Positions 4,634 through 53,318 of a DNA stretch of 64,000 nucleotides are shown one piece after another. Under the pieces are notes generated by a model. The model saw only the letters and a list, made by a program, of their open reading frames with translations. It ran no database searches and had not been told where the DNA came from. The stretch's first letter is position 1. Each line of letters opens with the position of its first letter. The stretch is from assembly GCA_032691205.1 (NCBI GenBank), contig GCA_032691205.1_4541.1. One strand, 5' to 3'. A program made the position numbers and the translations under genes. The DNA comes from a phage.

Positions 4634-4656
4634 GATTTGTTTCTCTTCTGTTTTGA

Positions 4657-4716
4657 GCGGTGGACCATTCCGCCGCCCTATGTGTTACATCTTACTACTT
4701 TTTTAAACATTGTCAA
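4657..4716 (-). promoter_or_regulatory. early promoter + 5'-UTR hairpin unit 13
   Basis: Minus strand TTGACA-16nt-TAAGAT, hairpin GCGGTGGA-CCAT-TCCGCCGC. Confidence 0.6.
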
Positions 4717-4724
4717 GGATATTT

Positions 4725-5006
4725 TTAACTATATGATCCACATCGTTCGCAGTAGTGATCATCGTCGTCATCTGCTACCTGGCTGATAAAATGATCTACC
4801 TTTGCTTTCAAATTATTATAATTGCTTTCTACTTCCTGTAGTCGTCGTTGGTAGTATTCCAGGGCTTGCACATAGGCCATTTGTTCGGTTTTAGCTTGCA
4901 CAGCTAAATTCATGCCGCGCGTTTCATCGTATAACCAATAACCATCATTACATTCACTAATAGATAGTGTAGGGCTTAGTTTTTCGTGACGGATAACCTT
5001 GCTCAT
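4725..5006 (-). CDS. hypothetical protein
   Basis: ORF 93 aa. Confidence 0.6.
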   Translation of the reverse strand: MSKVIRHEKLSPTLSISECNDGYWLYDETRGMNLAVQAKTEQMAYVQALEYYQRRLQEVESNYNNLKAKVDHFISQVADDDDDHYCERCGSYS

Positions 5007-5016
5007 GGTGTGCCCC

Positions 5017-5124
5017 TTACTTCAAAATGATTGTTGTGATAACTGCTACGGTGATCCAAAATGGAACGGCTAGAATGATAGCGTTAATCGTTCCAACCGT
5101 CAAACTATTTCCTTTATTAATCAT
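5017..5124 (-). CDS. hypothetical small membrane peptide (about 35 aa)
   Basis: Hand-translated MINKGNSLTVGTINAIILAVPFWITVAVITTIILK; RBS AAGAGG; downstream of unit 14. Confidence 0.35.
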   Translation of the reverse strand: MINKGNSLTVGTINAIILAVPFWITVAVITTIILK

Positions 5125-5153
5125 TGTAAGCCTCTTGCATAATTTCACTATGA

Positions 5154-5210
5154 GCGGCACCATTGCCGCCCTACGTGGTAAATATTATGCCAGTGGCGGC
5201 GATATGTCAA
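5154..5210 (-). promoter_or_regulatory. early promoter + 5'-UTR hairpin unit 14
   Basis: Minus strand TTGACA-17nt-TAATAT, hairpin GCGGCA-CCAT-TGCCGC. Confidence 0.6.
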
Positions 5211-5773
5211 AGACTATTTTCAAAGTTTTCTAGTGCGATCCTTTTTTCTTCCTCTGTCGGCTGATAATCAGGAAAAGCATCAACACACAACAACGGCGGG
5301 ATCTCTTCGTACTCTTCCTCTTCCGTTGTCTCCTCGTCTTCCTCCTGGGCTATGGCTGCAATTTTGGCTAATTTTCTTTCAGCTTGAATCAATTTACCAT
5401 CAAGTACGTTTTTTGCCATGTTGTAAGCGGTCCAGGTGATGCGCTTACTTTCCAGGGCCTGATCGAGCGCCGCTATCTTGCTGGGGTATTCATCCAGGAC
5501 ACGAAAAGCCGGATCAACTTTGTACAAAGGATTATCTTTCGCGCCGTCGCTCGCATCTTCCGCACTGGATAAATCAGCGTTACCATTTGCCAGCCAGCCA
5601 GGGCGCACATAACGCGCTTTTACGTTGCCGTTACTACGTGCTAATCTGTTACCTATTTGCTCACCGCTATATCCCGTGGATTCATCGATAAGATGATCGG
5701 GAATGATGCGCGGATCATCTGCTTCATGTTTTACCCAAGACTGGATCACATATTCGCGGCCCATATTAACCAC
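5207..5773 (-). CDS. hypothetical protein with acidic C-terminal tract
   Basis: ORF 188 aa; EEDEETTEEEEYEE tract. Confidence 0.65.
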   Translation of the reverse strand: MVNMGREYVIQSWVKHEADDPRIIPDHLIDESTGYSGEQIGNRLARSNGNVKARYVRPGWLANGNADLSSAEDASDGAKDNPLYKVDPAFRVLDEYPSKIAALDQALESKRITWTAYNMAKNVLDGKLIQAERKLAKIAAIAQEEDEETTEEEEYEEIPPLLCVDAFPDYQPTEEEKRIALENFENSL

Positions 5774-6847: not shown

Positions 6848-7114
6848 ATGACAAATACTACATTACATCTTATGCACTCATTGGGCTGGCAAGGCGGCAC
6901 GGTGCACCAGGTAGCAAGCGCAACGGGCTTAAAGGTTGAAACCGTTCTCAACCTATCAGATTATAAGGTCGAGGATAGTTATCAATTACAAAGTTACACG
7001 GGCGGTTTTACCTGGGCGCGTGAAGGTGGGAAAGAAAGCAATATACCACATTGGGGAAAAGGTGATATTCATTTTTGGCTAGGTGTCCTGACCTGGCAAG
7101 AAAACAAAAAATAA
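6848..7114 (+). CDS. hypothetical protein
   Basis: ORF 88 aa on the plus strand with RBS GAAAGGG; first rightward ORF after the leftward array. Confidence 0.4.
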   Translation: MTNTTLHLMHSLGWQGGTVHQVASATGLKVETVLNLSDYKVEDSYQLQSYTGGFTWAREGGKESNIPHWGKGDIHFWLGVLTWQENKK

Positions 7115-7116
7115 TC

Positions 7117-7145
7117 TTGACAAGCCCAGGGATAGGGCTTATACT
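7117..7145 (+). promoter_or_regulatory. sigma70-like promoter firing into the ORF-free region
   Basis: TTGACA (7117-7122), 17 nt, TATACT (7140-7145). Confidence 0.5.
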
Positions 7146-7376
7146 GTTTTACATACAGAAGAGGAAGCGCCACCCCACGGCGTAAAGGCGGGGCTAACAT
7201 ACCAGGGGCACTGGTTGGAAGGTTGATCGCCGGTAGGCTGGGCGCTATATATTTGTAAAGAAATGTAAAGATAAAATAATCGCTTGCTTTCCTGGCTGGA
7301 TCTGTTATTCTTATTACATGGCGAGGGGACACGGGAGCGCGAGACAAACACCGCCCCTGCGCGTCATTCTCTAAAT

Positions 7377-7395
7377 GAGAATGATTATCATTTAC
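7377..7395. promoter_or_regulatory. Fur-box-like palindrome
   Basis: GAGAATGATTATCATTTAC matches 15 of 19 positions of the Fur consensus GATAATGATAATCATTATC; related palindromes at 7365-7383, 7435-7453, 7463-7483. Confidence 0.3.
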
Positions 7396-7502
7396 CTTAT
7401 CAAATAAGAATAAATCTCATTTATAAACTTAAATGCGAATCATTATCATTTGCATTTCCATATGAGAACTCTTCTCATTCTCACCTGCATAAAAATTTTT
7501 GT

Positions 7503-7560
7503 AAACTTTAAATTTTGCTTTTGTACTTTCATTTTTGTAAAAGCAAAAAAACTTTAAATA
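7503..7560. repeat. direct repeat copy A (~58 bp)
   Basis: AAACTTTAAATTTTGCTTTTGTACTTTCATTTTTGTAAA...AAACTTTAAATA; second copy at 7640-7697. Confidence 0.6.
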
Positions 7561-7639
7561 CTGTGGGCGCGCAAAATTTTTAAAATTTTCCTTGACTTTT
7601 GAGTTTTGTTTTGTATCTAACATTTTAAGATAATTTTCC

Positions 7640-13876: not shown

Positions 13877-14368
13877 TTACCACATAATCTCGCGCAACTC
13901 TTTTTCTTCTTTAAAATTACGCAAGTTTTCCAGTGCACGGTTTAGGTCTTCTTCCGTCTCTGCTTTCTGGACTTTTTCCATCATTTTTGCAACAATATTT
14001 TTCTTAACTTGCAAATCTGGAACAGGCATACGTTTTTCCATTTCATAAACTTCTCGTTTATGGCGTTCCTCCATCTCTGCTTTTTCTTTTACCCAATCCG
14101 CCTCGTCCATTGCACCTTTGCAGACACAAGTGTAACCTTTAATAGTATAATCACCATGTTCAATACCAGGTTGAAGAGCTAAGGCTTCATTACCACAATA
14201 CGCGCACAACGGACGACCTGGCATTTTCAAAGTTTTGGTAGCCTTAGCGCCACATTGACTATCCCAGCTTGTTTTATAACTGGAACCGTTGTCTCCGTGA
14301 GAACGACCAACCAAGAAGTTACGGAAGAAACCCATAGCACGTTCGTCAATGTAATCAGGGTAAGCCAT
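13877..14368 (-). CDS. hypothetical Cys-containing protein
   Basis: ORF 163 aa; CAYCGN...CVCKG. Confidence 0.6.
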   Translation of the reverse strand: MAYPDYIDERAMGFFRNFLVGRSHGDNGSSYKTSWDSQCGAKATKTLKMPGRPLCAYCGNEALALQPGIEHGDYTIKGYTCVCKGAMDEADWVKEKAEMEERHKREVYEMEKRMPVPDLQVKKNIVAKMMEKVQKAETEEDLNRALENLRNFKEEKELREIMW

Positions 14369-14380
14369 TATATTCTCCTT

Positions 14381-14674
14381 TCACATTAAGACACGTTTTG
14401 TGTCGATGGGTGCATTATCAAACATGTTAAGAACATTGTCAAGCAGTTTTACTAATTCGTTTGTAATTTGTTCCTTTGAACGGGAGGAAGTGAGCACTTT
14501 GCTTTCACCAACAATATGCATAACTTTTATAGGAGCGTCTAAAATGATGTTGTGCTGACGATCCTCTTCAAAAGAAGCCAACCATTTCTCATTGTTACCG
14601 TGCAAGGCTACAATCACACCAAAACCGTTAATTGTTTCAGAAATATTCTTAGTTGCTAAAGTAATGTTCATCAT
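14381..14674 (-). CDS. hypothetical protein (first gene of the leftward operon)
   Basis: ORF 97 aa; divergent from the plus promoter at 14731. Confidence 0.6.
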   Translation of the reverse strand: MMNITLATKNISETINGFGVIVALHGNNEKWLASFEEDRQHNIILDAPIKVMHIVGESKVLTSSRSKEQITNELVKLLDNVLNMFDNAPIDTKRVLM

Positions 14675-14730
14675 CTACCTCTCTTGTTAATGTTCATACA
14701 TGATACCTGAAAATAATTTCAGATCAAGTA

Positions 14731-14758
14731 TTGACATACTTTTTAATCTTGTTAAGAT
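14731..14758 (+). promoter_or_regulatory. sigma70-like promoter for the rightward block
   Basis: TTGACA (14731-14736), 16 nt, TAAGAT (14753-14758). Confidence 0.6.
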
Positions 14759-14788
14759 CAACTCCTACCAAACAAAAGGAGAAAACAA

Positions 14789-15232
14789 ATGCAAAACATC
14801 CAAAACATCAAACTGACTTGGCCCGAAGCTAAAGAAGCAATGAAGGAAGGTAGACGTGTTGAGCACCGCCATTTTTGTGGTGGCGAATGGTTTGAGATGC
14901 GAGATGGTGTTATTCTCGACGAACAAGGTTATAACATGGAAACTTGGTTCAGAGGGGAAGCTTGGCAGGAAGAGGGTTGGTCTGTAATTGAAAAAGAGGA
15001 CAGTAAGGAAGAAGGCGTGTTGTCTAATGTAGAACGCGAGGTGAGGGAAACAAAGACACCTGTTTTGGATTTTGTATACCTGGAAGAACTTGTGGCAGCA
15101 TCTTTTGTAGCAGGAAACCTTTGGAATACACCTGTTAGCCGACTGGAGAACCAAAATAACCCGTCTGCTCGTAATCACAAGCTTTATAAGGGTAAAGGTC
15201 ACAACAAATTAAAGAAAGGAAAGAAGAAATGA
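14789..15232 (+). CDS. hypothetical protein
   Basis: ORF 147 aa, RBS AAAGGAGAA. Confidence 0.65.
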   Translation: MQNIQNIKLTWPEAKEAMKEGRRVEHRHFCGGEWFEMRDGVILDEQGYNMETWFRGEAWQEEGWSVIEKEDSKEEGVLSNVEREVRETKTPVLDFVYLEELVAASFVAGNLWNTPVSRLENQNNPSARNHKLYKGKGHNKLKKGKKK

Positions 15233-15375
15233 TCTACAAAAACAAGTTCACTGGTTGTCTCCGTAAATTTATCGATAAGAAAGGGTTTGTTTCTCTTGAC
15301 AACGGGGTTACATGGACAGAGAATGGCACTTCAGAACAGTTAATCAAAGCTTTGCCTTACTACGAGGAGGTTTAA
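15229..15375 (+). CDS. hypothetical protein (48 aa)
   Basis: ATGA overlap with the upstream stop; MIYKNKFTGCLRKFIDKKGF... Confidence 0.4.
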   Translation: MIYKNKFTGCLRKFIDKKGFVSLDNGVTWTENGTSEQLIKALPYYEEV

Positions 15376-15699
15376 ATGTCAAACAGTCTGTTTAGCGTGT
15401 CAATTGCACCACGTGTCAATATCCGTTGTCAGTTTGTTACTTTACCTGGTGTAACGCATATCACATTAGAATACGATCCTCGCTCACGAGACAACCCAAT
15501 CACAGGGAAAATTGATTGTGCTTATGGTGATTTTGTTATGGATCACCAAACCATCTTATGCTGTGTGCAACGCTTACAGGCAGGATCTTTATACATCTTT
15601 AAGAAAACTGTGTTCCAAGAGATTGCTCAAGCAGTTGAAAGTGGTATGGAGACTCTTAACGCTATGATTGAAGCAGCCAACAAGAAGGAGGTTTTATGA
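15376..15699 (+). CDS. hypothetical protein
   Basis: ORF 107 aa, RBS GAGGAGG. Confidence 0.65.
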   Translation: MSNSLFSVSIAPRVNIRCQFVTLPGVTHITLEYDPRSRDNPITGKIDCAYGDFVMDHQTILCCVQRLQAGSLYIFKKTVFQEIAQAVESGMETLNAMIEAANKKEVL

Positions 15700-15956
15700 C
15701 ACTTTATCACGTAACTACAGAAGGCGACTGTGAAGGCCGCACTACAAAAGATTTGGGGTATGTTGAAGCAGATTCACCTGAACATGCTATCAAATACCTG
15801 CATTCCATCGGGAAGTATGCGGGTTATGAGTATACTATCTACGAGGTTGAAATTATTAACCTTATACAAGTGGCAACTCCTATGGCAGAGTTGAAACATC
15901 TTAAGGCAAAAGTAAGACCTGGTATAGTGTCCGATTACAAAGGGGAAGTAAAGTGA
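15696..15956 (+). CDS. hypothetical protein
   Basis: ORF 86 aa, overlapping stop/start. Confidence 0.6.
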   Translation: MTLYHVTTEGDCEGRTTKDLGYVEADSPEHAIKYLHSIGKYAGYEYTIYEVEIINLIQVATPMAELKHLKAKVRPGIVSDYKGEVK

Positions 15957-16165
15957 GTGGATGGATTAAAGTATCTGGTACTGAGGATGTTCCTATCGGA
16001 GAGTGGCTTGTAATCATGGCAAACGGCAAGAAGGGATTCTGTGAAGTTAACAAAACACGCAATGGCACGATAGCTGTTATCAATGGTCATTTTTATTTTG
16101 ACTTGGCACCTGTGATCGCATACCATGAACTACCAACATATGAAGAGGAGATTAACAATGGCTAA
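15953..16165 (+). CDS. hypothetical protein
   Basis: ORF 70 aa. Confidence 0.55.
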   Translation: MSGWIKVSGTEDVPIGEWLVIMANGKKGFCEVNKTRNGTIAVINGHFYFDLAPVIAYHELPTYEEEINNG

Positions 16166-16475
16166 CAAAGAACCACATGTATATACTGCACTGGTAAAAC
16201 ATTTGAACAAAGAACGTAACAGGATCATTGCAGATTATCGTAAATTTAAACGTAGTAGTCTAAATCGTAAATACATGCCACATGCAGCTTTTGACGCTAC
16301 ACGTGCAGTGTTTCGTGCAAAGATTGCGGAAATGGATAATCTGCTTAAGCTTGCACGATTATCTATTCAGGCATCCAAAGTAACAGGGGTCACTCACTTC
16401 TTTGACTTCGATACTAAAGCACTATATGCACCAGAAGCAGGTGAACAATTGATTTATCTACTTACCAAAAAATAA
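16158..16475 (+). CDS. hypothetical protein
   Basis: Start set at MANKEPHVY with RBS GAGGAG. Confidence 0.55.
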   Translation: MANKEPHVYTALVKHLNKERNRIIADYRKFKRSSLNRKYMPHAAFDATRAVFRAKIAEMDNLLKLARLSIQASKVTGVTHFFDFDTKALYAPEAGEQLIYLLTKK

Positions 16476-16651
16476 GTGTTGACTTTTTTCAAAAAATATG
16501 CTACCCTAACCCCGAAGGGTCGAGCGATAGCGAGTATAGATTATGTAATAGATTAATCTCTATCGTTAGATGTTCGAAGAACAGAGATTTAAGTACTTGT
16601 TCTTATCGGTAGATGATCGTAAGATCAAGAACAATAATAGGAGAGTGTGTT

Positions 16652-16849
16652 ATGTTAGTCAGTGAAATACTACCTGACTCTAATGGTAATCAGATCACTA
16701 TTGATTGGTTTCCTGGTACTGGTACGCTAGATCTAACTGCTGAATGGTCTGGTGATATTTATGGAGAAGGTGTATTATCATTGTCTACAGAACAAATGAT
16801 CATCCTTCGTGACTTCTTAATTAGTTTAGATCTAGGAGAAAACAAATGA
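16652..16849 (+). CDS. hypothetical protein
   Basis: Start set at MLVSEILPD with RBS AGGAGAG. Confidence 0.5.
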   Translation: MLVSEILPDSNGNQITIDWFPGTGTLDLTAEWSGDIYGEGVLSLSTEQMIILRDFLISLDLGENK

Positions 16850-17115
16850 GTAAAACTTCTGTTGAGTTTATCGAGAAATCCCCTGTTCCAAAGTTATACC
16901 GTTTATCTGAAATTGAACCTATGTCTGTTTTCTACTATTACATTGCAGAAGTAGATGAACAAGAACGGGAATACTATTTGGCTACAGATACAGGTGCAGT
17001 GTGCTTAACAGGTTCTCGTGCAGGAGAATACATTGTGAATAGTCGTTTTAATGAAGCAGACTCCTGTTGGGCTAAGGTTGAAACTAAGATTGTCATCAAC
17101 ATCACCAATCATTAA
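16846..17115 (+). CDS. hypothetical protein
   Basis: ORF 89 aa. Confidence 0.55.
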   Translation: MSKTSVEFIEKSPVPKLYRLSEIEPMSVFYYYIAEVDEQEREYYLATDTGAVCLTGSRAGEYIVNSRFNEADSCWAKVETKIVINITNH

Positions 17116-45928: not shown

Positions 45929-46723
45929 TTGAGCAAGTTGAACACACTTGATCAATATTACACTAACCCCGCTTATGCGGGGTTCTTATGTGATAAGATC
46001 AAAGAAATTTTTGGAGAGGAAGCTAACTACGTAGAACCATCTGCGGGAGAAGGAGCTTTCTCTTCTTGTTTTAAAAACATAACTTCTTTTGATATTGACC
46101 CTAAGTTTGAAGATTGTATTGAGGCAGATTTTTTAGCTCAATCTGTTGAGTCTGTTGGTAGTGTAACTGCTTTTGTCGGTAATCCTCCGTTTGGAAAAAA
46201 TGCTAGTCTTGCCATTAAGTTCTTTAACCATTGTGCTGAAATGTTGGATAACGAAGGTGGTATTTGTTTTATCTTGCCTCGCACATTTCAAAAAATCTTT
46301 TTTGCACACAAACTAAATCCCCACATGCATCTTCTTTACGAAGAAGAATGTCCAAAAGGATCTTTTATTCTTCATGGAGAACCTTGGGATGTTCCTTGTG
46401 TATTCCAGATATGGATTAAACGCAACGAGAAGCGTTCTCCCGTTGTTTTAGGAGAGAATCGACTATTCGTATTAGGTAACAGTAAAGACTACGATATAGC
46501 CGTTAGGAGAGCGGGAGCAAGTGCAGGTAAAGTGTTATCAGAAGAAGATTCTTTATCTGAAGCATCTACCTATTTTTTAAAAGCCTTGACTTCTAATCTT
46601 AAAACGCGTATCATTGAGGCTTACCCGTTACTTAAAGCTGAAGCTAGTAAAACTGCGGGAGTAAGAAGTTTAAGTTTAAAAGAACTTCAGTGGGTTCTGG
46701 AGAACATTAGAAAGGAGGAATAG
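45929..46723 (+). CDS. DNA N6-adenine methyltransferase
   Basis: TTG start with RBS AAGGAGG; motif I VEPSAGEGAF, motif IV FVGNPPFG. Confidence 0.65.
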   Translation: MSKLNTLDQYYTNPAYAGFLCDKIKEIFGEEANYVEPSAGEGAFSSCFKNITSFDIDPKFEDCIEADFLAQSVESVGSVTAFVGNPPFGKNASLAIKFFNHCAEMLDNEGGICFILPRTFQKIFFAHKLNPHMHLLYEEECPKGSFILHGEPWDVPCVFQIWIKRNEKRSPVVLGENRLFVLGNSKDYDIAVRRAGASAGKVLSEEDSLSEASTYFLKALTSNLKTRIIEAYPLLKAEASKTAGVRSLSLKELQWVLENIRKEE

Positions 46724-49700
46724 TGAGTAAGTTTACATGGGATATTGAAGCAAACGGATTGTTGAATAATGACACTATTGATTATTTAGCTAGTCCTTAT
46801 CGTCTCAAAGACACATTTCAAATGCACTGTATTGTCTTAGAGAACCATGAAACAGGAGAAATAGTAGCTTTCCACGATGGCCCTAAATACATCTTTGATG
46901 GGCGTCCTTATGAAGAGTCAGATGGTAAATACACATATGTTCTTAAAGAGTATGTGGCGCAAGATTACACGCATTTTCAACTAAAAGATTTCCCAGACTT
47001 TATTAATCATGAAGGTTATTTTAAAGACAAGCCTGAATATCTGGTTGAAATGGCTGTGGCTCACAACGGTATCAACTACGACTGGTTGGCTACAAAACTG
47101 TTTTATGGATTAGATTACAGTGTTAAATATAATACGTGGGGCAAAAATAAGGTAAAACTTATTGACTCCTTGATTTTGAGTAAAGTGTTAAACCCAGATC
47201 GAAAGATTGAGGGCAAATCAGGACATAGCTTGGCAGCACTTTCTCGAAAGGCAGGGGGTGATGTAAAAATAGATTTCCGTAAAGAGATTCCAGAAGAAGA
47301 TCGATTTAAGACTTTTGCTGCTGATATGCTTTATTACTGTATCTATGACAACAAAGCCAATACGAGCGTATATAATTACCTTATGGAAGAGTGGGGTGAT
47401 TATGATAAATGGGAAGGTCCATTTGAACTTGAACAACGTGTAGCAGACATTATTACACGCCAGGAACACCGTGGGTTTGCTTTTAACATGAAGCAAGCAG
47501 AAGAGAACCTTGCTTTTTTGGATGCAGAAATGGAGCGTCTTCGTTTACTCGTTGAGCCTATTTTGCCACCTAAACCAGCAACAAAAGGTTATCTTAAGGC
47601 TTTTATTCCACCTAAGTTGCAAATTAAAAAGAACTTAGAGCCAACTAACCATATGATCAATTTTGCTAAGAAACATGATGGTCATTTGGAAGAGAGGGAT
47701 GGAGATTGGTGGTTAGTGATGTTGGGGAAAGAGTGGAAACTGCCAGTTGCAGCAGATGAGCCTTTGTGTGATCCTAATATCCCTGCAACATTGAACGATA
47801 CTACCCATATTAAAAACTGGCTTGTAGGATTAGGTTGGGTACCGTCTGAATATAAAGATAAAGACTTGACTCTTAAATCTGGCACCAAGATTAAAAAGAG
47901 CGAGGAAGAACTTCAGAAAGGTATTCGAGCTTACGTTGAGCAAACTCTATCTTCTAATTTTTGTCAGGATCGTTGTGATCATCTGGAGTGCACACCGGAA
48001 ACCTTGGAAAGGAAGATTCAAGAGCGTATAGCAAAAGGTAAAGGTCGCGGTCTTAAAGTATTGACTAACCCATGTTTTACCAAAGGTCAGGAAAAAGAAA
48101 TTTGTCCTAACCTGCAAGCTTTGGGTGAGAAATTTCCTTATGCTACACAGATTGTAGAATACTTAACGTATAAGCATCGTAGGAACTCTATTTTAGGCGG
48201 TGGTGCTGATTGGGAAGAAGACGAAGAAGATCAAGAATACAACAAAGGTTTCTTGGCAGCAGTTCGTGCAGATGGACGTATACCTACGCCAGCGGCTACA
48301 TGCGATGCAGCAACCTCTCGTATGAAGCATAGGTCTGTAGCTAATATTCCTCGTGTCACATCTTTGTTTGGATGGCAGATGCGTAACCTGTTTGGTGTAG
48401 AGGTTCCTAAATACTTCCAGATTGGTTATGACTTTGATTCATTAGAGGCGAAGATTGAGTCGCATTATACGTGGAGATATGATAATCCTGATCATGCTTA
48501 CTGTAATGCACTTCTGTTAGAAAAACCAAACGATGTGCATACTATGATGGCAAAACATATTACTGATATTATTGGACGTAAGTTTGAACGTGGTCCTGCT
48601 AAGAGCGTTAAATACGGTTGTGTACCTGTAGATAATACGGAAGTGTTAACAAGAACGGGTTGGAAGAAACGTAAAGATCTTTTTGTAGGGGATGAAGTTT
48701 TATCTTATAATACTCACACCGCTCTTTACGAATATACCCCTATTCTTAAGCTGTGGGACTATAACGATGCAGAAGTTGTCTCTCTCGGTAACAAGTGGTT
48801 CAAAGTAGAAGTTACTAACGATCATATGTGGATTAACGCACAGAGAAAAACTATGCGATCAGATGGTAACAATGTTAAGTATATGCAAGTGGAGCGTAGA
48901 TCTACAGAGGATTTAAACTCGGAGTCAAACATAATTGCAGCAGGGCGATCTGGTGTGGTGTCTACTCTAACAGTGGAAGAAGGTCGTTTCTTAGGCTGGC
49001 TTCTTTCGGATGGCTACTATAAGTGGTCTGGCAAAGCCAGAAATAAAGTAATGGGTATTACAGTCACGGTAGATCAAGATGAGAAAAAATTCTTAGAAGA
49101 AGCACGTGAGGCTGTGGGAGATATCTTCACATTTGACGAGTATGTATCTGGAACGATGCATTCATTACGTCCTAATAAGAGTCAGTTTAGGGAATTTTTG
49201 ACTAAATGTGGCGTTGAAGTGGGTCAAAATAAGCACGAAGTGGACTGGTCTACATTAATTGCTAATCAAGGTCAAGCTGTGTTGGAAGCATTCTTAGAGG
49301 CATTCTGGATGGCAGATGGTCATAAGCGTCCAAACGGCAGTTTTGTTATCCGTCAAAAGAAAGGTAAGATTAGCGACGCTGTTTCTTTGGCTATCAATAT
49401 GACAGGTAATATTGCGTATGGTTCTGTTCAAAAAGATGGCATGTTAACGTTGGCAATCAATAACGGACAAACTATTTCAGGACAGAGGTTGACAAAAGCT
49501 TTTTCACGAGTAACAGATGTATTCTGTATCTCAACCAAGAATGAATCTTTTGTTATGCGTCAGAATGGTTTTATCACGTTGACAGGTAACTGCACGTACG
49601 GCGCTCAAGCAGACAAGGTTGCTAAAACAATTGGTAGCGATAAATACACAGGTCAATTAGTGTTCGATGCTTTCTGGGAAGCTGCATTCCCACTGGCGCG

Positions 49701-50292
49701 TCTTAAAGAACGTTTAAACGATTTCTGGGTTAAGACTGGTAAACAGTATGTTTTGGGTATTGACGGTCGTAAGGTTCCTACTCGTTCTGCTCACGCGATT
49801 CTTAACTCTCTGTTCCAAAGTGGTGGGGTTATCTGTGCTAAACGTGCAATGGTTATTTATGACGATATGATCGAAGAAGAAGGACTAAGTGTTGACTTCT
49901 TTAAAGATGACTGGAAGAATAAAGACTTCGTGCAACAAATGATTGCATATCACGATGAAGCCCAGCTTGAAGTTTCTCGTAACCTTGTAGAATTTAAATG
50001 GTTTTCACCTGAATCATTAGGTTGGAAGAAAGTAGACGATCCTGAAGAACAAAAGAAAATTGATAAAGAATGCCTTGCTAAAGTCGAAGAATGGAAGCAT
50101 AATAAGGAAAAAGAGACAGGGCAAATTTGGGCTAACATTCATGAATCTCCCAAAGGTGGATGGTTTACAGCCTATAGTCGGGCAGGTGAACTTGCTGCCT
50201 TAGCTGTTACTAAGGCTGGAGAATTTTACAATCTTAATGTTCAGCTTACTGCCGGATATGATGTGGGTAATTCCTGGGCATCCTGTCATTGA
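46723..50292 (+). CDS. family A DNA polymerase with 3'-5' exonuclease, interrupted by an intein
   Basis: GTG start; N-terminus FTWDIEANGLL...HCIV resembles T7 gp5; motif B rebuilt as PAKSVKYG|CTYGAQADKVAKTIG after removing 48619-49590. Confidence 0.85.
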   Translation: MSKFTWDIEANGLLNNDTIDYLASPYRLKDTFQMHCIVLENHETGEIVAFHDGPKYIFDGRPYEESDGKYTYVLKEYVAQDYTHFQLKDFPDFINHEGYFKDKPEYLVEMAVAHNGINYDWLATKLFYGLDYSVKYNTWGKNKVKLIDSLILSKVLNPDRKIEGKSGHSLAALSRKAGGDVKIDFRKEIPEEDRFKTFAADMLYYCIYDNKANTSVYNYLMEEWGDYDKWEGPFELEQRVADIITRQEHRGFAFNMKQAEENLAFLDAEMERLRLLVEPILPPKPATKGYLKAFIPPKLQIKKNLEPTNHMINFAKKHDGHLEERDGDWWLVMLGKEWKLPVAADEPLCDPNIPATLNDTTHIKNWLVGLGWVPSEYKDKDLTLKSGTKIKKSEEELQKGIRAYVEQTLSSNFCQDRCDHLECTPETLERKIQERIAKGKGRGLKVLTNPCFTKGQEKEICPNLQALGEKFPYATQIVEYLTYKHRRNSILGGGADWEEDEEDQEYNKGFLAAVRADGRIPTPAATCDAATSRMKHRSVANIPRVTSLFGWQMRNLFGVEVPKYFQIGYDFDSLEAKIESHYTWRYDNPDHAYCNALLLEKPNDVHTMMAKHITDIIGRKFERGPAKSVKYGCVPVDNTEVLTRTGWKKRKDLFVGDEVLSYNTHTALYEYTPILKLWDYNDAEVVSLGNKWFKVEVTNDHMWINAQRKTMRSDGNNVKYMQVERRSTEDLNSESNIIAAGRSGVVSTLTVEEGRFLGWLLSDGYYKWSGKARNKVMGITVTVDQDEKKFLEEAREAVGDIFTFDEYVSGTMHSLRPNKSQFREFLTKCGVEVGQNKHEVDWSTLIANQGQAVLEAFLEAFWMADGHKRPNGSFVIRQKKGKISDAVSLAINMTGNIAYGSVQKDGMLTLAINNGQTISGQRLTKAFSRVTDVFCISTKNESFVMRQNGFITLTGNCTYGAQADKVAKTIGSDKYTGQLVFDAFWEAAFPLARLKERLNDFWVKTGKQYVLGIDGRKVPTRSAHAILNSLFQSGGVICAKRAMVIYDDMIEEEGLSVDFFKDDWKNKDFVQQMIAYHDEAQLEVSRNLVEFKWFSPESLGWKKVDDPEEQKKIDKECLAKVEEWKHNKEKETGQIWANIHESPKGGWFTAYSRAGELAALAVTKAGEFYNLNVQLTAGYDVGNSWASCH
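48619..49590 (+). mobile_element. intein with LAGLIDADG homing endonuclease, in the polymerase
   Basis: Starts CVPVDNTEVLTRTGWKK; LAGLIDADG motifs FLGWLLSDGYY and LEAFWMADGH; ends VMRQNGFITLTGN followed by +1 Cys. Confidence 0.75.
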
Positions 50293-50710: not shown

Positions 50711-50929
50711 ATGCGTAAATTAGTGAGCTTTAATGTTTCAATTCTTGTTGATGAACAAAATGAAGATGTTATTAAAGGTCTTGCAAATAAGATTGCAGGT
50801 GGAATGACGGAAGCTGAAGTGTGGGAAGAATGTGCTCGACTTTATGAGGAAGGTGTTATTGAGGTCTTGGGGGATGAGATTAATATGGACGATGTTGTAA
50901 AAGTAACTGTGGAGCGTATCCATGACTAA
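50711..50929 (+). CDS. hypothetical protein
   Basis: ORF 72 aa, RBS AAGGAGAAAA. Confidence 0.55.
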   Translation: MRKLVSFNVSILVDEQNEDVIKGLANKIAGGMTEAEVWEECARLYEEGVIEVLGDEINMDDVVKVTVERIHD

Positions 50930-51515
50930 ATCAAAACAAATCAATATTGCCAAAGAAATTCTTACCGTATTAAAGATTGCTGATCCTAATTCTGTCTTGG
51001 CTGGCGGCGCTGTTCGTGATTGGTGTATTCTTGATATTGCTGGACGTGATCTGGATTTTTACACGTCTCTTCCTGCACATCGATCAGAAGAGCAAATACA
51101 AGAATTGATTGCATCTGCTTTGATGGGAACTAATGTTCGTAAATTAGGAAACAAAGAAGCTTCGGATAACTACGAGGGTGTTACTGGTCTTAAACACGTT
51201 TTTGAGTTTGAACGTGATGGTCAGCTTTGCAACCTTATGATTATGGAACCAAGCGTAATGACAACCTTTCTAAATGAGTTTGATCTGTCCATCTGCCAGG
51301 CTGCATTTGATGGGAAGGATTGTTATTACTCTAAAGATTTTGAAACAACTTTGGAAACAGGGATCTGCTTCTTGCACAAAGATGTTAGAGAAGATGCCAA
51401 ACACGTTATTAAAATTGCTACACGTTTCCCATATCTTCGTTTTGTGAAAGAGGTTAAGGTTCCACGTCCACCTCAAGTAGATACCAGATTGGAAGAAGAT
51501 GATATTCCTTGGTAA
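50922..51515 (+). CDS. minimal nucleotidyltransferase (CCA-adding/poly(A) polymerase head-domain type)
   Basis: 197 aa; LAGGAVRDWCILDIAGRDLDFYT matches the GGxxRD...DxD signature. Confidence 0.5.
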   Translation: MTKSKQINIAKEILTVLKIADPNSVLAGGAVRDWCILDIAGRDLDFYTSLPAHRSEEQIQELIASALMGTNVRKLGNKEASDNYEGVTGLKHVFEFERDGQLCNLMIMEPSVMTTFLNEFDLSICQAAFDGKDCYYSKDFETTLETGICFLHKDVREDAKHVIKIATRFPYLRFVKEVKVPRPPQVDTRLEEDDIPW

Positions 51516-51522
51516 TTAAAGC

Positions 51523-51552
51523 TTGACAATATTAAACATTTTATGATAGGAT
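51523..51552 (+). promoter_or_regulatory. sigma70-like promoter
   Basis: TTGACA, 18 nt, TAGGAT upstream of 51561. Confidence 0.4.
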
Positions 51553-51560
51553 AGCATTCA

Positions 51561-51953
51561 ATGACTGAACGTTCTAAGATAGCTGTTGAAACTGTTTATG
51601 GAAATTATACCAGTTTAACACTAGTTGAGAAAAATGTTGTAGGTCTTGACAACTCTTTTTATTTTCAAATTTTGGTTATTCAAGGTGGAAACAAGAAGCT
51701 AACTGCTCGTGTTGAAACATCTGAAATAATTGAAACCACTGTTACAAACAAAGAATTCATTTCACTGCAAGATACAATCCGAAACGTTATAGACGAAGAA
51801 GGCAAAGCTGCCACAATTAAACTCGGAGGTTTCCCAGTGCAAATAGTTCATTTCCCTAATGGTGAAATTGGAGTTGGAATAGGTAAAGGTAAATACCTGT
51901 TAGAGCAAGATGATATGGAAAGACTCCGCTCTTTCTGTGCAAAATTAATGTAA
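51561..51953 (+). CDS. hypothetical protein
   Basis: ORF 130 aa. Confidence 0.6.
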   Translation: MTERSKIAVETVYGNYTSLTLVEKNVVGLDNSFYFQILVIQGGNKKLTARVETSEIIETTVTNKEFISLQDTIRNVIDEEGKAATIKLGGFPVQIVHFPNGEIGVGIGKGKYLLEQDDMERLRSFCAKLM

Positions 51954-51969
51954 TGTAGAGGAGATAATA

Positions 51970-52857
51970 ATGTCCGTAATTAATACTGAAACTGATCGTA
52001 AAGGCAAAACCGTAACTTATGCAACTGGTATCGTAGACTACGTTAAACTGGATAAATTCGCTGAACCTAAAACTTTTCATTGGGAAGGAAAAACGATTGT
52101 TTCAACTCACCGGGCTTCTCTTGTTCTGAAAGAGAAAGGTGCTAAACCAGATGAGAAAGGTGTTTGGATTTCTCTTGGTGATATTGAACTGAAAGAAGGT
52201 TATGAAAACCTGCAAGTTAAAGAAGGTGATAACTGGATCACTATTGAAAAAGGTGTAGAAGTAAGTATTGATATTGATCGCGTTGACAATAAAGGCGGTA
52301 AAACTTACTACAATACTAAAAAATCTCGTATTACAGTATTGTCTACCGATGGTGTTCAGAAGTCTAACAAATCTTCTGGCAATAAAGGTTCCAACGATGC
52401 TGCTCCTAAGCAACCCTATAAAAAACGTGATACTGTAGGTCTGGAAACTGGTCACGCAGTAAATGGTGCACTGGAACTGATTCGTAATGGTGTTAAAGGT
52501 GATGCTTTCGATATCGCTGGGGTTGTTCAATCTGCAACTGTCACGCTGAAATCGGAAATTGCTGAATCTCGTGGCGTTGATATTAATGACTATGATCTTG
52601 GGGCATCTGTTGGTCACGCTATCCTAAATGCTTGTAAAGACCATACCATTAAGACTGTATCTGTAGAAGATCTGATTGATTCTGCTCGTAAAGTTCTGGC
52701 TCTGTCTGATAAAGTTGCTGCTGCCATTCGTGGTTCCGCAGAACAACCTAAGAAAGAAGAGAAGAAAGAAGTTAAGAAGCCTGAACCACAACCAGAACCA
52801 ACTCCAAGTAATCAAGAAGAACCTCCAATGGACTTCGACGAAGATATTCCTTTTTGA
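51970..52857 (+). CDS. ssb: single-stranded DNA-binding protein
   Basis: 295 aa; Gly/Ser-rich linker and acidic tail PMDFDEDIPF, near-identical to the E. coli SSB tip MDFDDDIPF. Confidence 0.6.
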   Translation: MSVINTETDRKGKTVTYATGIVDYVKLDKFAEPKTFHWEGKTIVSTHRASLVLKEKGAKPDEKGVWISLGDIELKEGYENLQVKEGDNWITIEKGVEVSIDIDRVDNKGGKTYYNTKKSRITVLSTDGVQKSNKSSGNKGSNDAAPKQPYKKRDTVGLETGHAVNGALELIRNGVKGDAFDIAGVVQSATVTLKSEIAESRGVDINDYDLGASVGHAILNACKDHTIKTVSVEDLIDSARKVLALSDKVAAAIRGSAEQPKKEEKKEVKKPEPQPEPTPSNQEEPPMDFDEDIPF

Positions 52858-53285
52858 TCAGTAAGTTATGCTCGTGTTGTGGGGCTGAAAAGCCCCTCAA
52901 CATGTTCCAAGTAAGGAAGGCTTCTAAAGATGGCTATACGGCATCCTGTAAAGCTTGCTTAAAAGAACGTGACCGTATACGAGATCAAGACCCTAATCGT
53001 AAAGCAGCAAAAGAAAAGTATGTAAAGGGAAAAGGAAAGGATAAAGCAGACGCGGCTAAAAAACGTTGGCAAGAAAAGAATCCCAAGAAGCGTAGTGTTC
53101 ACGTTTTAGTTGGTAACGCACTCCGAGATGGAAAGTTAGTGAAACAACCTTGCCAAGTGTGTGGGTCTGTTGATGTTCATGCTCATCATTGTGATTATGA
53201 TAAACCACTAGATGTTCTATGGCTGTGTCCTCTGCACCATGAGGCTTGGCATCAAGAACATGGTGAAGGGTTGAACGCTGAATAA
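52854..53285 (+). CDS. HNH endonuclease
   Basis: CSCCG...CKAC Zn ribbon; CQVCGSVDVHAHHCDYDKPLDVLWLCPLHHEAWH. Confidence 0.6.
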   Translation: MISKLCSCCGAEKPLNMFQVRKASKDGYTASCKACLKERDRIRDQDPNRKAAKEKYVKGKGKDKADAAKKRWQEKNPKKRSVHVLVGNALRDGKLVKQPCQVCGSVDVHAHHCDYDKPLDVLWLCPLHHEAWHQEHGEGLNAE

Positions 53286-53290
53286 AAGAA

Positions 53291-53318
53291 AGGAGCCAAA
53301 TGGCTCCTTTTCTTATTT
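53291..53318. terminator. bidirectional terminator between convergent blocks
   Basis: AGGAGCC-AAAT-GGCTCCT with T-runs on both sides. Confidence 0.6.

Follow-up and report, generated by a model that had tools for sequence, protein, structure and literature searches.

Gad2 (Gabija anti-defence 2) is a 400-amino-acid (aa) protein of the Bacillus phage SPbetaL7, and SPbetaL7 that lacks it becomes sensitive to Gabija (bioRxiv 10.1101/2023.05.01.538930). A Gad2 homologue from a Brevibacillus laterosporus prophage blocks Gabija when co-expressed, and AlphaFold predicts a nucleotidyltransferase (NTase) domain in Gad2 (bioRxiv 10.1101/2023.05.01.538930). A 2026 review gives the mechanism as not elucidated, and names RecBCD inhibition and DNA-end sensing as triggers of Gabija (PMC12904381). 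We found no solved structure of Gad2 in the PDB. Here we analyse a 197-aa NTase encoded in a 64,000-nucleotide stretch of phage DNA (contig GCA_032691205.1_4541.1 of GenBank assembly GCA_032691205.1), and refer to this whole 64-kb stretch as the window. As judged from profile alignments, the family of the window NTase is homologous to the N-terminal NTase domain of Gad2. In addition, the protein ends in a short acidic tip that resembles the C-terminal tip of SSB (single-stranded DNA-binding protein). Our favoured, though tentative, reading is that it is a Gad2-like NTase docked at the SSB hub and acting on the DNA side.

Other described systems bear on this comparison. The C-terminal hexapeptide of SSB (SSB-Ct), DDDIPF, is an established docking motif that recruits the many partners of SSB (PMC5872125). 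According to a 2026 preprint, the NTase of the Pseudomonas phage Emajogi is toxic when over-expressed; by gene numbering it adjoins a primase/helicase, and its homologues in some phages are annotated as members of the Gad2 family. Class II tRNA nucleotidyltransferases and poly(A) polymerase I, whose name the window NTase carries in many database records, are twice its size and have body and tail domains as well as the motifs RRD and EDxxR. The gene and its tentative name are thus already public, and small stand-alone phage NTases of this fold are common. Within the literature searched, two observations appear to be undescribed: the family-level homology to Gad2, and the SSB-tip-like ending near an SSB-like gene whose tail copies that of the host SSB.

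A family of small phage nucleotidyltransferases related to Gad2

Homologues of the window NTase were gathered into two alignments, one of close relatives that are 59–99% identical (A1) and one of 76 diverse family homologues (A3). A word-indexed search gave only 10 close homologues until distant phage homologues derived from tblastn were added, and HMMER, run exhaustively over 1.84 billion representatives, recovered 452 clusters at E ≤ 1e-3. Nearly all of these clusters are stand-alone proteins of 170–240 aa. The longer members (273–416 aa) contain no informative Pfam domain, so no domain fusion was seen. A viral structure library also holds many phage proteins of 165–215 aa with the same fold.

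Five residues, D43, L44, D45, Y84 and K164, are invariant among the 76 sequences of A3. A further twelve are at least 90% conserved (A27, G28, G29, A30, R32, W34, Y47, E95, M106, M108, F120 and P170). E95 sits on a beta strand of a confident structural model, and by analogy with the general pattern of the Pol-beta superfamily it probably acts in catalysis.

The family was compared with Gad2 using A4, an alignment of ten Gad2 homologues from the supplementary table of Yirmiya et al. With hhalign, A3 matched A4 at 93.7% probability (E 2e-7, 116 columns). A lower maximum-accuracy (MAC) threshold gave 94.2% (E 1.2e-7) over 166 columns and extended the alignment to the neck helix. Against a single Gad2 sequence, A3 gave 63% (E 7e-5). 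The portion of Gad2 covered is residues 1 to ~190. Residues 120–131 of the window NTase (FDLSICQAAFDG) align confidently with the FDFTVCMG block of Gad2, and in the longer alignment H161 and K164 lie opposite the conserved R152 and K155 of Gad2. What the two proteins have in common is therefore a phage-borne NTase domain with the blocks AGGA...(N)D-x-D-x-Y(F) and FD(F/L)(T/S)(V/I)C, a beta strand containing Q or N, and a basic pair in the neck helix. They differ in that Gad2 has ~400 aa with a long C-terminal region and reads GGAITS where the window NTase has GGAVRD. Gad2 also sits in the anti-defence locus of SPbeta-like phages, whereas the window NTase lies in a string of replication genes.

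A hidden Markov model (HMM) built from A4 matched 49 family members at E < 1e-3, whereas the 170 window frames used as decoys gave no match. Among the matched members are P0086 and P0124, both of which have the gene for a family A DNA polymerase (PolA) and the NTase gene in the same synteny as in the window. Precomputed matches to PF26128, the Pfam family named Gad2, are likewise on record for many members, including P0047, P0086, P0090 and P0009, and faintly for P0124. P0009 is 61% identical to the window NTase. Together, these comparisons suggest that the family of the window NTase is a small-protein branch of the phage Gad2-like NTases. We place the homology at the level of the family, not of direct membership, because the Gad2 HMM does not match the window NTase itself, its own cluster has no PF26128 match on record and pairwise BLASTP gives an E value of only 0.033.

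A C-terminal tip resembling that of SSB

The last seven residues of the window NTase, EEDDIPW, follow a flexible linker (VKVPRPPQVDTRL). Within A1, D193, P196 and W197 never change, and D194 and I195 reach at least 90% conservation. The ~15 residues ahead of them, predicted to be a disordered linker, differ freely between these relatives of 59–99% identity, both in sequence and in length. Near-invariant terminal residues behind a freely varying linker are the signature of a short linear motif. The tip shares with SSB-Ct an acidic run followed by isoleucine, proline and an aromatic residue, a free C-terminus and a disordered linker. It differs in sitting on an enzyme that has no oligonucleotide/oligosaccharide-binding (OB) fold, and its docking is predicted from sequence. 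Phage T7 offers a resembling precedent: several of its replisome proteins (gp2.5 and gp4) have acidic C-termini that end in an aromatic residue and dock on the polymerase. We found no paper on non-SSB proteins with a mimic of the SSB tip in our literature search.

A second protein encoded nearby carries such a tip. The C-terminus of E. coli SSB is PSNEPPMDFDDDIPF, ending in DFDDDIPF. The last 17 residues of the SSB-like protein encoded two genes downstream of the NTase (52807–52857) are PSNQEEPPMDFDEDIPF, ending in DFDEDIPF, and nearly duplicate the final 15 of E. coli SSB. Outside this tail the phage protein matched no SSB model, and its SSB matches in the PDB, PHROG and NCBIfam all fall in the tail. 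Because the remainder matches no SSB model, the phage protein appears to borrow the partner-docking tail of the host SSB.

To place the tip against the whole genome we used the phage nepoznato, which has 97.7% nucleotide identity to the window and supplied the parts of the genome outside it. All stop-terminated frames of at least 40 codons were scanned in the window and in three segments of nepoznato that make up the rest of the genome (n = 1502). Endings of the form [ILVMF]P[FWY] occur in 4 of these frames, and only two of the four have an acidic context: the SSB-like protein and the NTase. In the NTase family, the ending is found in 16 of 252 sequences, or in 6 of 150 representatives at 50% identity. 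Divergent members with unrelated linkers end in ...PDDIPW (P0124), ...SNDIPW (P0181) and ...DDGIPF (P0203), and others of this kind in ...NDFPW (P0118), ...KPIPF (P0237) and ...ESIPY (P0135). From its conservation pattern, then, the tip is a lineage-specific yet recurrent add-on that behaves like a functional short linear motif.

Two further observations concern these tails. In the Justusliebigvirus phage BME3, 15 residues follow DFDDDIPF in the SSB-like gene (L002, 7026–7973; ...DFDDDIPFAPIGLQYGRNFLHCF), which would make the tip internal; the extension could be genuine, or it could stem from a frameshift or from an error in sequencing. Vibrio podovirus members of the NTase family have another aromatic tail, for example ...LPFWFGW. 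Across this subgroup, which comprises Vibrio podoviruses (Zobellviridae) and metagenomic relatives, it takes the form ...(V/S)xPF(W/F/Y)(F/L/I)G(W/Y) (L005 4983–5669, P0016, P0019, P0021–P0023, P0031 and P0034), and it may be another docking motif.

Genomic context

The window comes from a Phapecoctavirus, that is, a phAPEC8-like E. coli myovirus of ~150 kb in the subfamily Stephanstirmvirinae. Over the 3 kb that surround the NTase gene, the window is 97–98.6% identical to more than 60 deposited genomes, and the Phapecoctavirus orthologues have 95–99.5% protein identity to the window NTase, which matches PHROG 10174 (E 1.4e-62). In phAPEC8 (JX561091) and many other GenBank records the gene goes by 'putative tRNA nucleotidyl transferase / poly(A) polymerase', and in RefSeq the orthologues are named 'nucleotidyltransferase'; Phapecoctavirus proteins under either name are 97–99.5% identical to the window NTase. 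The signature singled out in a preliminary description of the window is accordingly not a new observation, since GenBank has carried an equivalent annotation from phAPEC8 onwards.

The NTase gene is part of a conserved gene order that runs from a primase/helicase through a few small or mobile genes to PolA, the NTase, an open reading frame (ORF) of ~130–148 aa and the SSB-like gene of ~290 aa (Table 1). This order is kept in phAPEC8, in two Justusliebigvirus genomes (BME3 and FKP3) and in two metagenomic contigs. The ORF between the NTase and SSB-like genes keeps its position in L001, L002, L006, L010 and L012, with a length of 129 aa in L010 and 148 aa in L012; the 130-aa version in the window matched nothing in Pfam, NCBIfam or the PDB. 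The window PolA scores 30.9 bits against Pfam DNA_pol_A, under the cut-off of 34.3, and outside an insert described below it is 98–99% identical to the phAPEC8 PolA.

Table 1. Features of the NTase gene and its neighbours in the window
Feature	Position	Strand	Remarks
Family A DNA polymerase (PolA)	46723..50292	+	Directly upstream of the NTase gene; the order primase/helicase, PolA, NTase recurs
CDS of the 197-aa NTase, stop codon included	50922..51515	+	From the ORF list and sequence; ATG to TAA
Motif A, residues 27–47, AGGAVRDW-x8-DLDFY	51000..51062	+	Nucleotide-binding turn and catalytic aspartates D43 and D45
E95, probable third metal-binding carboxylate	51204..51206	+	On strand 90–98 (VFEFE); at least 90% conserved
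Residues 120–131, FDLSICQAAFDG	51279..51314	+	Position of class II motif B (RRDFTINA) and of Gad2 FDFTVCMG
Neck helix, residues 160–170 (KHVIKIATRFP)	51399..51431	+	Invariant K164; conserved H161 and P170
Flexible linker, residues 178–190 (VKVPRPPQVDTRL)	51453..51491	+	pLDDT 55–66; no secondary structure
C-terminal tip, residues 191–197 (EEDDIPW)	51492..51512	+	Resembles the SSB C-terminal tip
130-aa neighbour, PHROG 16560	51561..51953	+	Conserved between the NTase and SSB-like genes
295-aa SSB-like protein	51970..52857	+	Two genes downstream of the NTase gene; called SSB in several GenBank records

In other loci of the family, the neighbours include genes for DNA ligase, an RNase H-like protein and RdgC as well as nucleotide-metabolism genes. 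The dominant gene association of the NTase family is with DNA replication and repair, not with tRNA genes. Given the Gad2 relatives, the location among replication genes and the SSB-like tip, a task on DNA under replication is likelier than the repair of tRNAs.

Comparison with class II tRNA nucleotidyltransferases

The preliminary description had presented the protein as a 197-aa NTase with the head-domain signature of class II enzymes and about half their usual length. Both statements hold. GGAVRD occupies residues 28–33 and DLD residues 43–45, the chains matched in structural comparison have 344–517 aa, and motif A (GGxVRD followed by DxD) is conserved throughout the family. In hhalign comparisons, this block aligns with the class II enzymes of E. 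coli, B. stearothermophilus and A. aeolicus.

An AlphaFold2 model based on A3 has a mean predicted local distance difference test (pLDDT) score of 90.5 and a predicted template modelling (pTM) score of 0.83. Residues 1–176 are folded and residues 178–197 are of low confidence; the neck helix spans residues 160–168 in the model. The closest folds are those of CCA-, CC- and A-adding enzymes and of poly(A) polymerase, over the head and the start of the neck, with template modelling (TM) scores normalised to the target of 0.23–0.31 against the class II chains. Other branches of the Pol-beta superfamily (Pol X, TUTases, MenT, CD-NTases and OAS) score clearly lower. The window protein is therefore a catalytically plausible, probably active NTase of the Pol-beta superfamily, with a predicted class II-like head-neck fold.

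Both the structural matches and motif A speak for an alternative that we nevertheless consider doubtful, namely that the protein is a minimal NTase of tRNA or other RNA 3' ends, engaged in CCA repair of nuclease-damaged tRNAs, whether from host or phage, or in RNA tailing. There is a precedent in jumbo phages, whose full-length CCA-adding enzymes have been interpreted as enzymes of tRNA-end repair (PMC7824862). Past motif A, however, the sequence likeness to class II enzymes ends. With Pfam PolyA_pol (PF01743), whose cut-off is 23 bits, the NTase scores 15.8 (E 0.019), and only residues 26–74 are covered; its close relatives score 13–15 bits. The NCBIfam CCA model TIGR02692 gives 14.2 bits against a cut-off of 438.8. 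A single-sequence search against solved structures returned nothing relevant, and a 76-sequence profile found CCA enzymes in the PDB at E 0.28–1.2 only, with motif A alone aligned. When A3 was aligned by hhalign to a head-neck alignment of three class II enzymes, the probability was 35–39%, again for motif A only (26 columns at 35%), and a forced longer alignment gave no confidence past that motif.

The remaining class II features were looked for one by one. Motif B (RRD) is absent from the whole window NTase; the matching position reads EFD, and its D is not conserved in the family. Motif D (EDxxR) lacks its arginine, since residues 157–161 read EDAKH, a stretch that is not conserved in the family, where the consensus is K-x-x-H. 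Nor does the protein have the body and tail domains with which class II enzymes hold the tRNA, as the fold ends near residue 176 of 197. Several defining class II features were thus sought and not found, and for this reason we do not file the window protein as a CCA-adding enzyme. The tRNA specificity proposed in the preliminary description found no support in these comparisons, although transfer to 3' ends without a template, in the manner of class II enzymes, may still be carried out by the window NTase. An SSB-like tip would also be of no evident use to a tRNA enzyme. The database name 'tRNA nucleotidyl transferase / poly(A) polymerase' can be corrected, as it rests on one motif.

Two arguments about this comparison were considered and dropped. 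A match of 'REDAKH' to EDxxR can be made by eye, but the ED is not conserved, and the alignment bridged through Gad2 sets H161 and K164 opposite later basic residues. The low isoelectric point (pI) of the NTase, 5.1, was taken up as a case against RNA binding, but the head-neck part of E. coli Cca has a pI of 5.4 and the family ranges from 5 to 9.

A stand-alone protein of comparable make-up is known from a bacterium. The structure 2la3 in the PDB is that of a 191-aa protein of Streptococcus pneumoniae (NP_344798.1), likewise described as a 'CCA-adding enzyme head domain' protein and uncharacterised according to the PDB title. It is 14% identical to the window NTase, was missed by the sequence profile and is not known to carry an SSB-like tip, and our literature search found no paper on it.

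The family also contains a shorter version. ORF223 of the Vibrio phage ICP1 (L003 4956–5369) has 137 aa and ends within the block equivalent to motif B (...ASVCMAW*). In vB_CoeS_P1, a relative of ICP1, the NTase runs on to 208 aa, and the ICP1 copy may be truncated or split.

tRNA genes and RNA repair

The preliminary description had suggested repair of host tRNA 3' ends, or tailing of other RNAs, on the premise that no phage tRNA genes are present. This is correct for the window, in which ARAGORN detected none, but not for the phage. In nepoznato, nine tRNA genes (Met, Ile, Pro, Gly, Thr, Asn, Ser, Arg and Met; L007 8101–10544) lie in the part of the genome outside the window, and a separate cluster of RNA ligase, phosphoesterase and kinase-like genes, likely a tRNA repair module, is found at 14306–16920. 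These genes show that the phage invests in tRNA upkeep, which favours an RNA substrate, as does an RNA ligase gene within 6 kb of the NTase gene in two of the nine family loci surveyed. On the other side, the 3' CCA is genomically encoded in all nine tRNA genes, so the phage tRNAs need no de novo CCA synthesis, and the host E. coli has its own cca gene. The NTase gene, moreover, forms part of the replication gene string, at a distance of ~100 kb from the genes for RNA repair.

Comparison with phage enzymes that make nucleotide signals

Another possibility is that the window NTase synthesises cyclic or linear oligonucleotides which, as signals or decoys, would disturb host immunity based on signalling. 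Small phage NTases from another family of the Pol-beta superfamily make 3'3'-cGAMP and c-di-AMP and inhibit TIR-STING (bioRxiv 10.1101/2022.06.09.495361). The window NTase is similarly small and has no acceptor domain. These MNT-like enzymes, described in the 2022 preprint of Ho et al., share with it that they are small phage enzymes of the Pol-beta superfamily, and theirs is an anti-defence role. They belong, however, to a minimal-NTase branch, and have no sequence similarity or preferential structural similarity to the window NTase. Their signature is GS-x-AY[GAN]T-x4-SDxD, in contrast to GGAVRDW...DLDFY and the class II-like fold found here. We considered the window protein as an MNT-like cyclic-dinucleotide synthase and rejected this, as both GS-x-AY[GAN]T-x4-SDxD and NP-x-h2[DE] are absent from it. 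PADLOC gave no match to the window NTase either. We rate synthesis of a signal as very unlikely, because the known phage makers of competitor cyclic dinucleotides form the MNT-like branch with its other signature.

Proposed role at SSB-coated DNA

If the window NTase is a Gad2-like enzyme that is expressed with the replication genes and docks at the SSB hub, its tip would fit into the SSB-tip pockets of host or phage proteins that interact with SSB, or bind to SSB itself. Docking would enrich the enzyme where the phage genome replicates, on single-stranded DNA coated by SSB and at DNA ends. Using two metal ions, D43, D45 and E95 would then pass a nucleotide, taken from an NTP or dNTP, to the hydroxyl of an acceptor, which could be the 3' end of DNA or of a primer, or else a protein at the docking site. 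By analogy with Gad2, the most likely purpose would be to blunt a host nuclease or helicase immunity that senses DNA ends or replication intermediates. That the tip docks on SSB partners is an inference, and so are the choice of acceptor and of nucleotide and the biological purpose. The full proposal is that a tip mimic brings ~200-aa Gad2-like NTases to the SSB hub, either to SSB-coated DNA ends or to host or defence proteins that recognise the SSB tip, and that they disarm a system such as Gabija by nucleotidylating a protein or a DNA 3' end; taken as a whole, it is improbable. The nearest alternative is a purely housekeeping role in phage replication, which fits the same data.

Several findings count against an SSB-docked, Gad2-like enzyme. 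The link to Gad2 is remote and indirect for the window NTase: the A4 HMM passes over both this protein and its relatives of at least 59% identity, and its own cluster (P0001) has no PF26128 match on record. The C-terminal half of Gad2, which is perhaps essential against Gabija, has no counterpart in the 197-aa NTase; shorter Gad2 homologues of 224–285 aa are present in the authors' table. In the part of that supplement covered here, none of the published Gad2 homologues has an SSB-like tip. The tip itself ends in W where that of SSB ends in F. The identity of the SSB-like protein rests on its tail and on the annotation of depositors, and its single-sequence AlphaFold model has a pLDDT of 37.7. 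The NTase has a fixed place in every Stephanstirmvirinae locus examined, which is less like a typical accessory anti-defence gene. Our literature search found no paper that characterises the window NTase or any ~200-aa member of the family. Lastly, most family members have no obvious C-terminal motif, and the Justusliebigvirus orthologues, which are found in the same synteny, end in ...EEFKI or ...DDDKI; since the tip is missing from most of the family, it is not essential to the core function of the family.

The patchy occurrence of the tip is also an argument for a variant in which the protein is a soluble Gad2-like NTase that acts elsewhere, ...DDIPW is not a docking motif and the position in the replication string reflects co-expression only. 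The target would then be nucleotidylated, and could be a host defence protein or a small molecule of the cytoplasm. Consistent with this variant, the NTase of Vibrio phages is located in strings of small early genes and not among replication genes. A locus on an 84-kb metagenomic phage contig (L014) points the same way: it encodes two paralogous Gad2-like NTases of 254 and 204 aa (4636–5400 and 7001–7615) that flank a gene for a Dam-like (MethyltransfD12) methyltransferase, a typical anti-defence neighbourhood. We nevertheless judge this variant unlikely. While the linker varies, the five terminal residues change little or not at all in relatives as far apart as 59% identity, the ending is found again in remote branches of the family, and the sole other protein of the genome that ends in an acidic IP[FW] is the SSB-like protein two genes downstream.

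The homology to Gad2 and the SSB-like ending are computational leads, and they make the question of the Gad2-type mechanism somewhat more testable. If the tip truly docks, the substrates of Gad2-like enzymes should be sought at SSB-coated DNA or DNA ends rather than among tRNAs. Targeting to the SSB hub, if true, would offer a first mechanistic handle on Gad2-type enzymes, and the window NTase would be the first enzyme found, within the literature searched, to use the SSB tip as an address label.

Other features of the locus

The window PolA contains a 324-aa insert (residues 633–956, at 48619–49590) that is missing from the phAPEC8 PolA. It begins with Cys and ends with Asn, and the next residue is again Cys, as expected of an intein; at E < 0.01, Pfam gave neither an intein nor an endonuclease domain for the insert.

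Four deposited records that carry the locus or a homologue, MG065650.1, MG065645.1, OP562383.1 and MH252123.1, have host labels at odds with a locus of E. coli phages. Three of them, labelled as phages of Campylobacter (B15), Acinetobacter and Klebsiella, are 97–98.5% identical at the NTase locus, and the remaining one, Campylobacter phage A145, has a Justusliebigvirus-type NTase homologue with 35.8% protein identity. The labels may mean broad host range, contamination or mislabelling.

A scan of the region for promoters and terminators gave no more sites than shuffled sequence. A promoter-like TTGACA-18-TAGGAT with an upstream TG is located at 51523–51552 (+), in the 45-nucleotide gap between the NTase stop codon and the next ORF. 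Downstream, a 143-aa ORF at 52854–53285 (+), similar to HNH endonucleases and endonuclease VII (PHROG 2340), overlaps the stop codon of the SSB-like gene and is followed by a hairpin at 53288–53311 that resembles a bidirectional terminator. Most of the near-identical phages align only to ~52855–52859, while nepoznato and AV125 align through this ORF, which looks like a mobile endonuclease insertion. In phAPEC8, a terminator directly follows the SSB-like gene.

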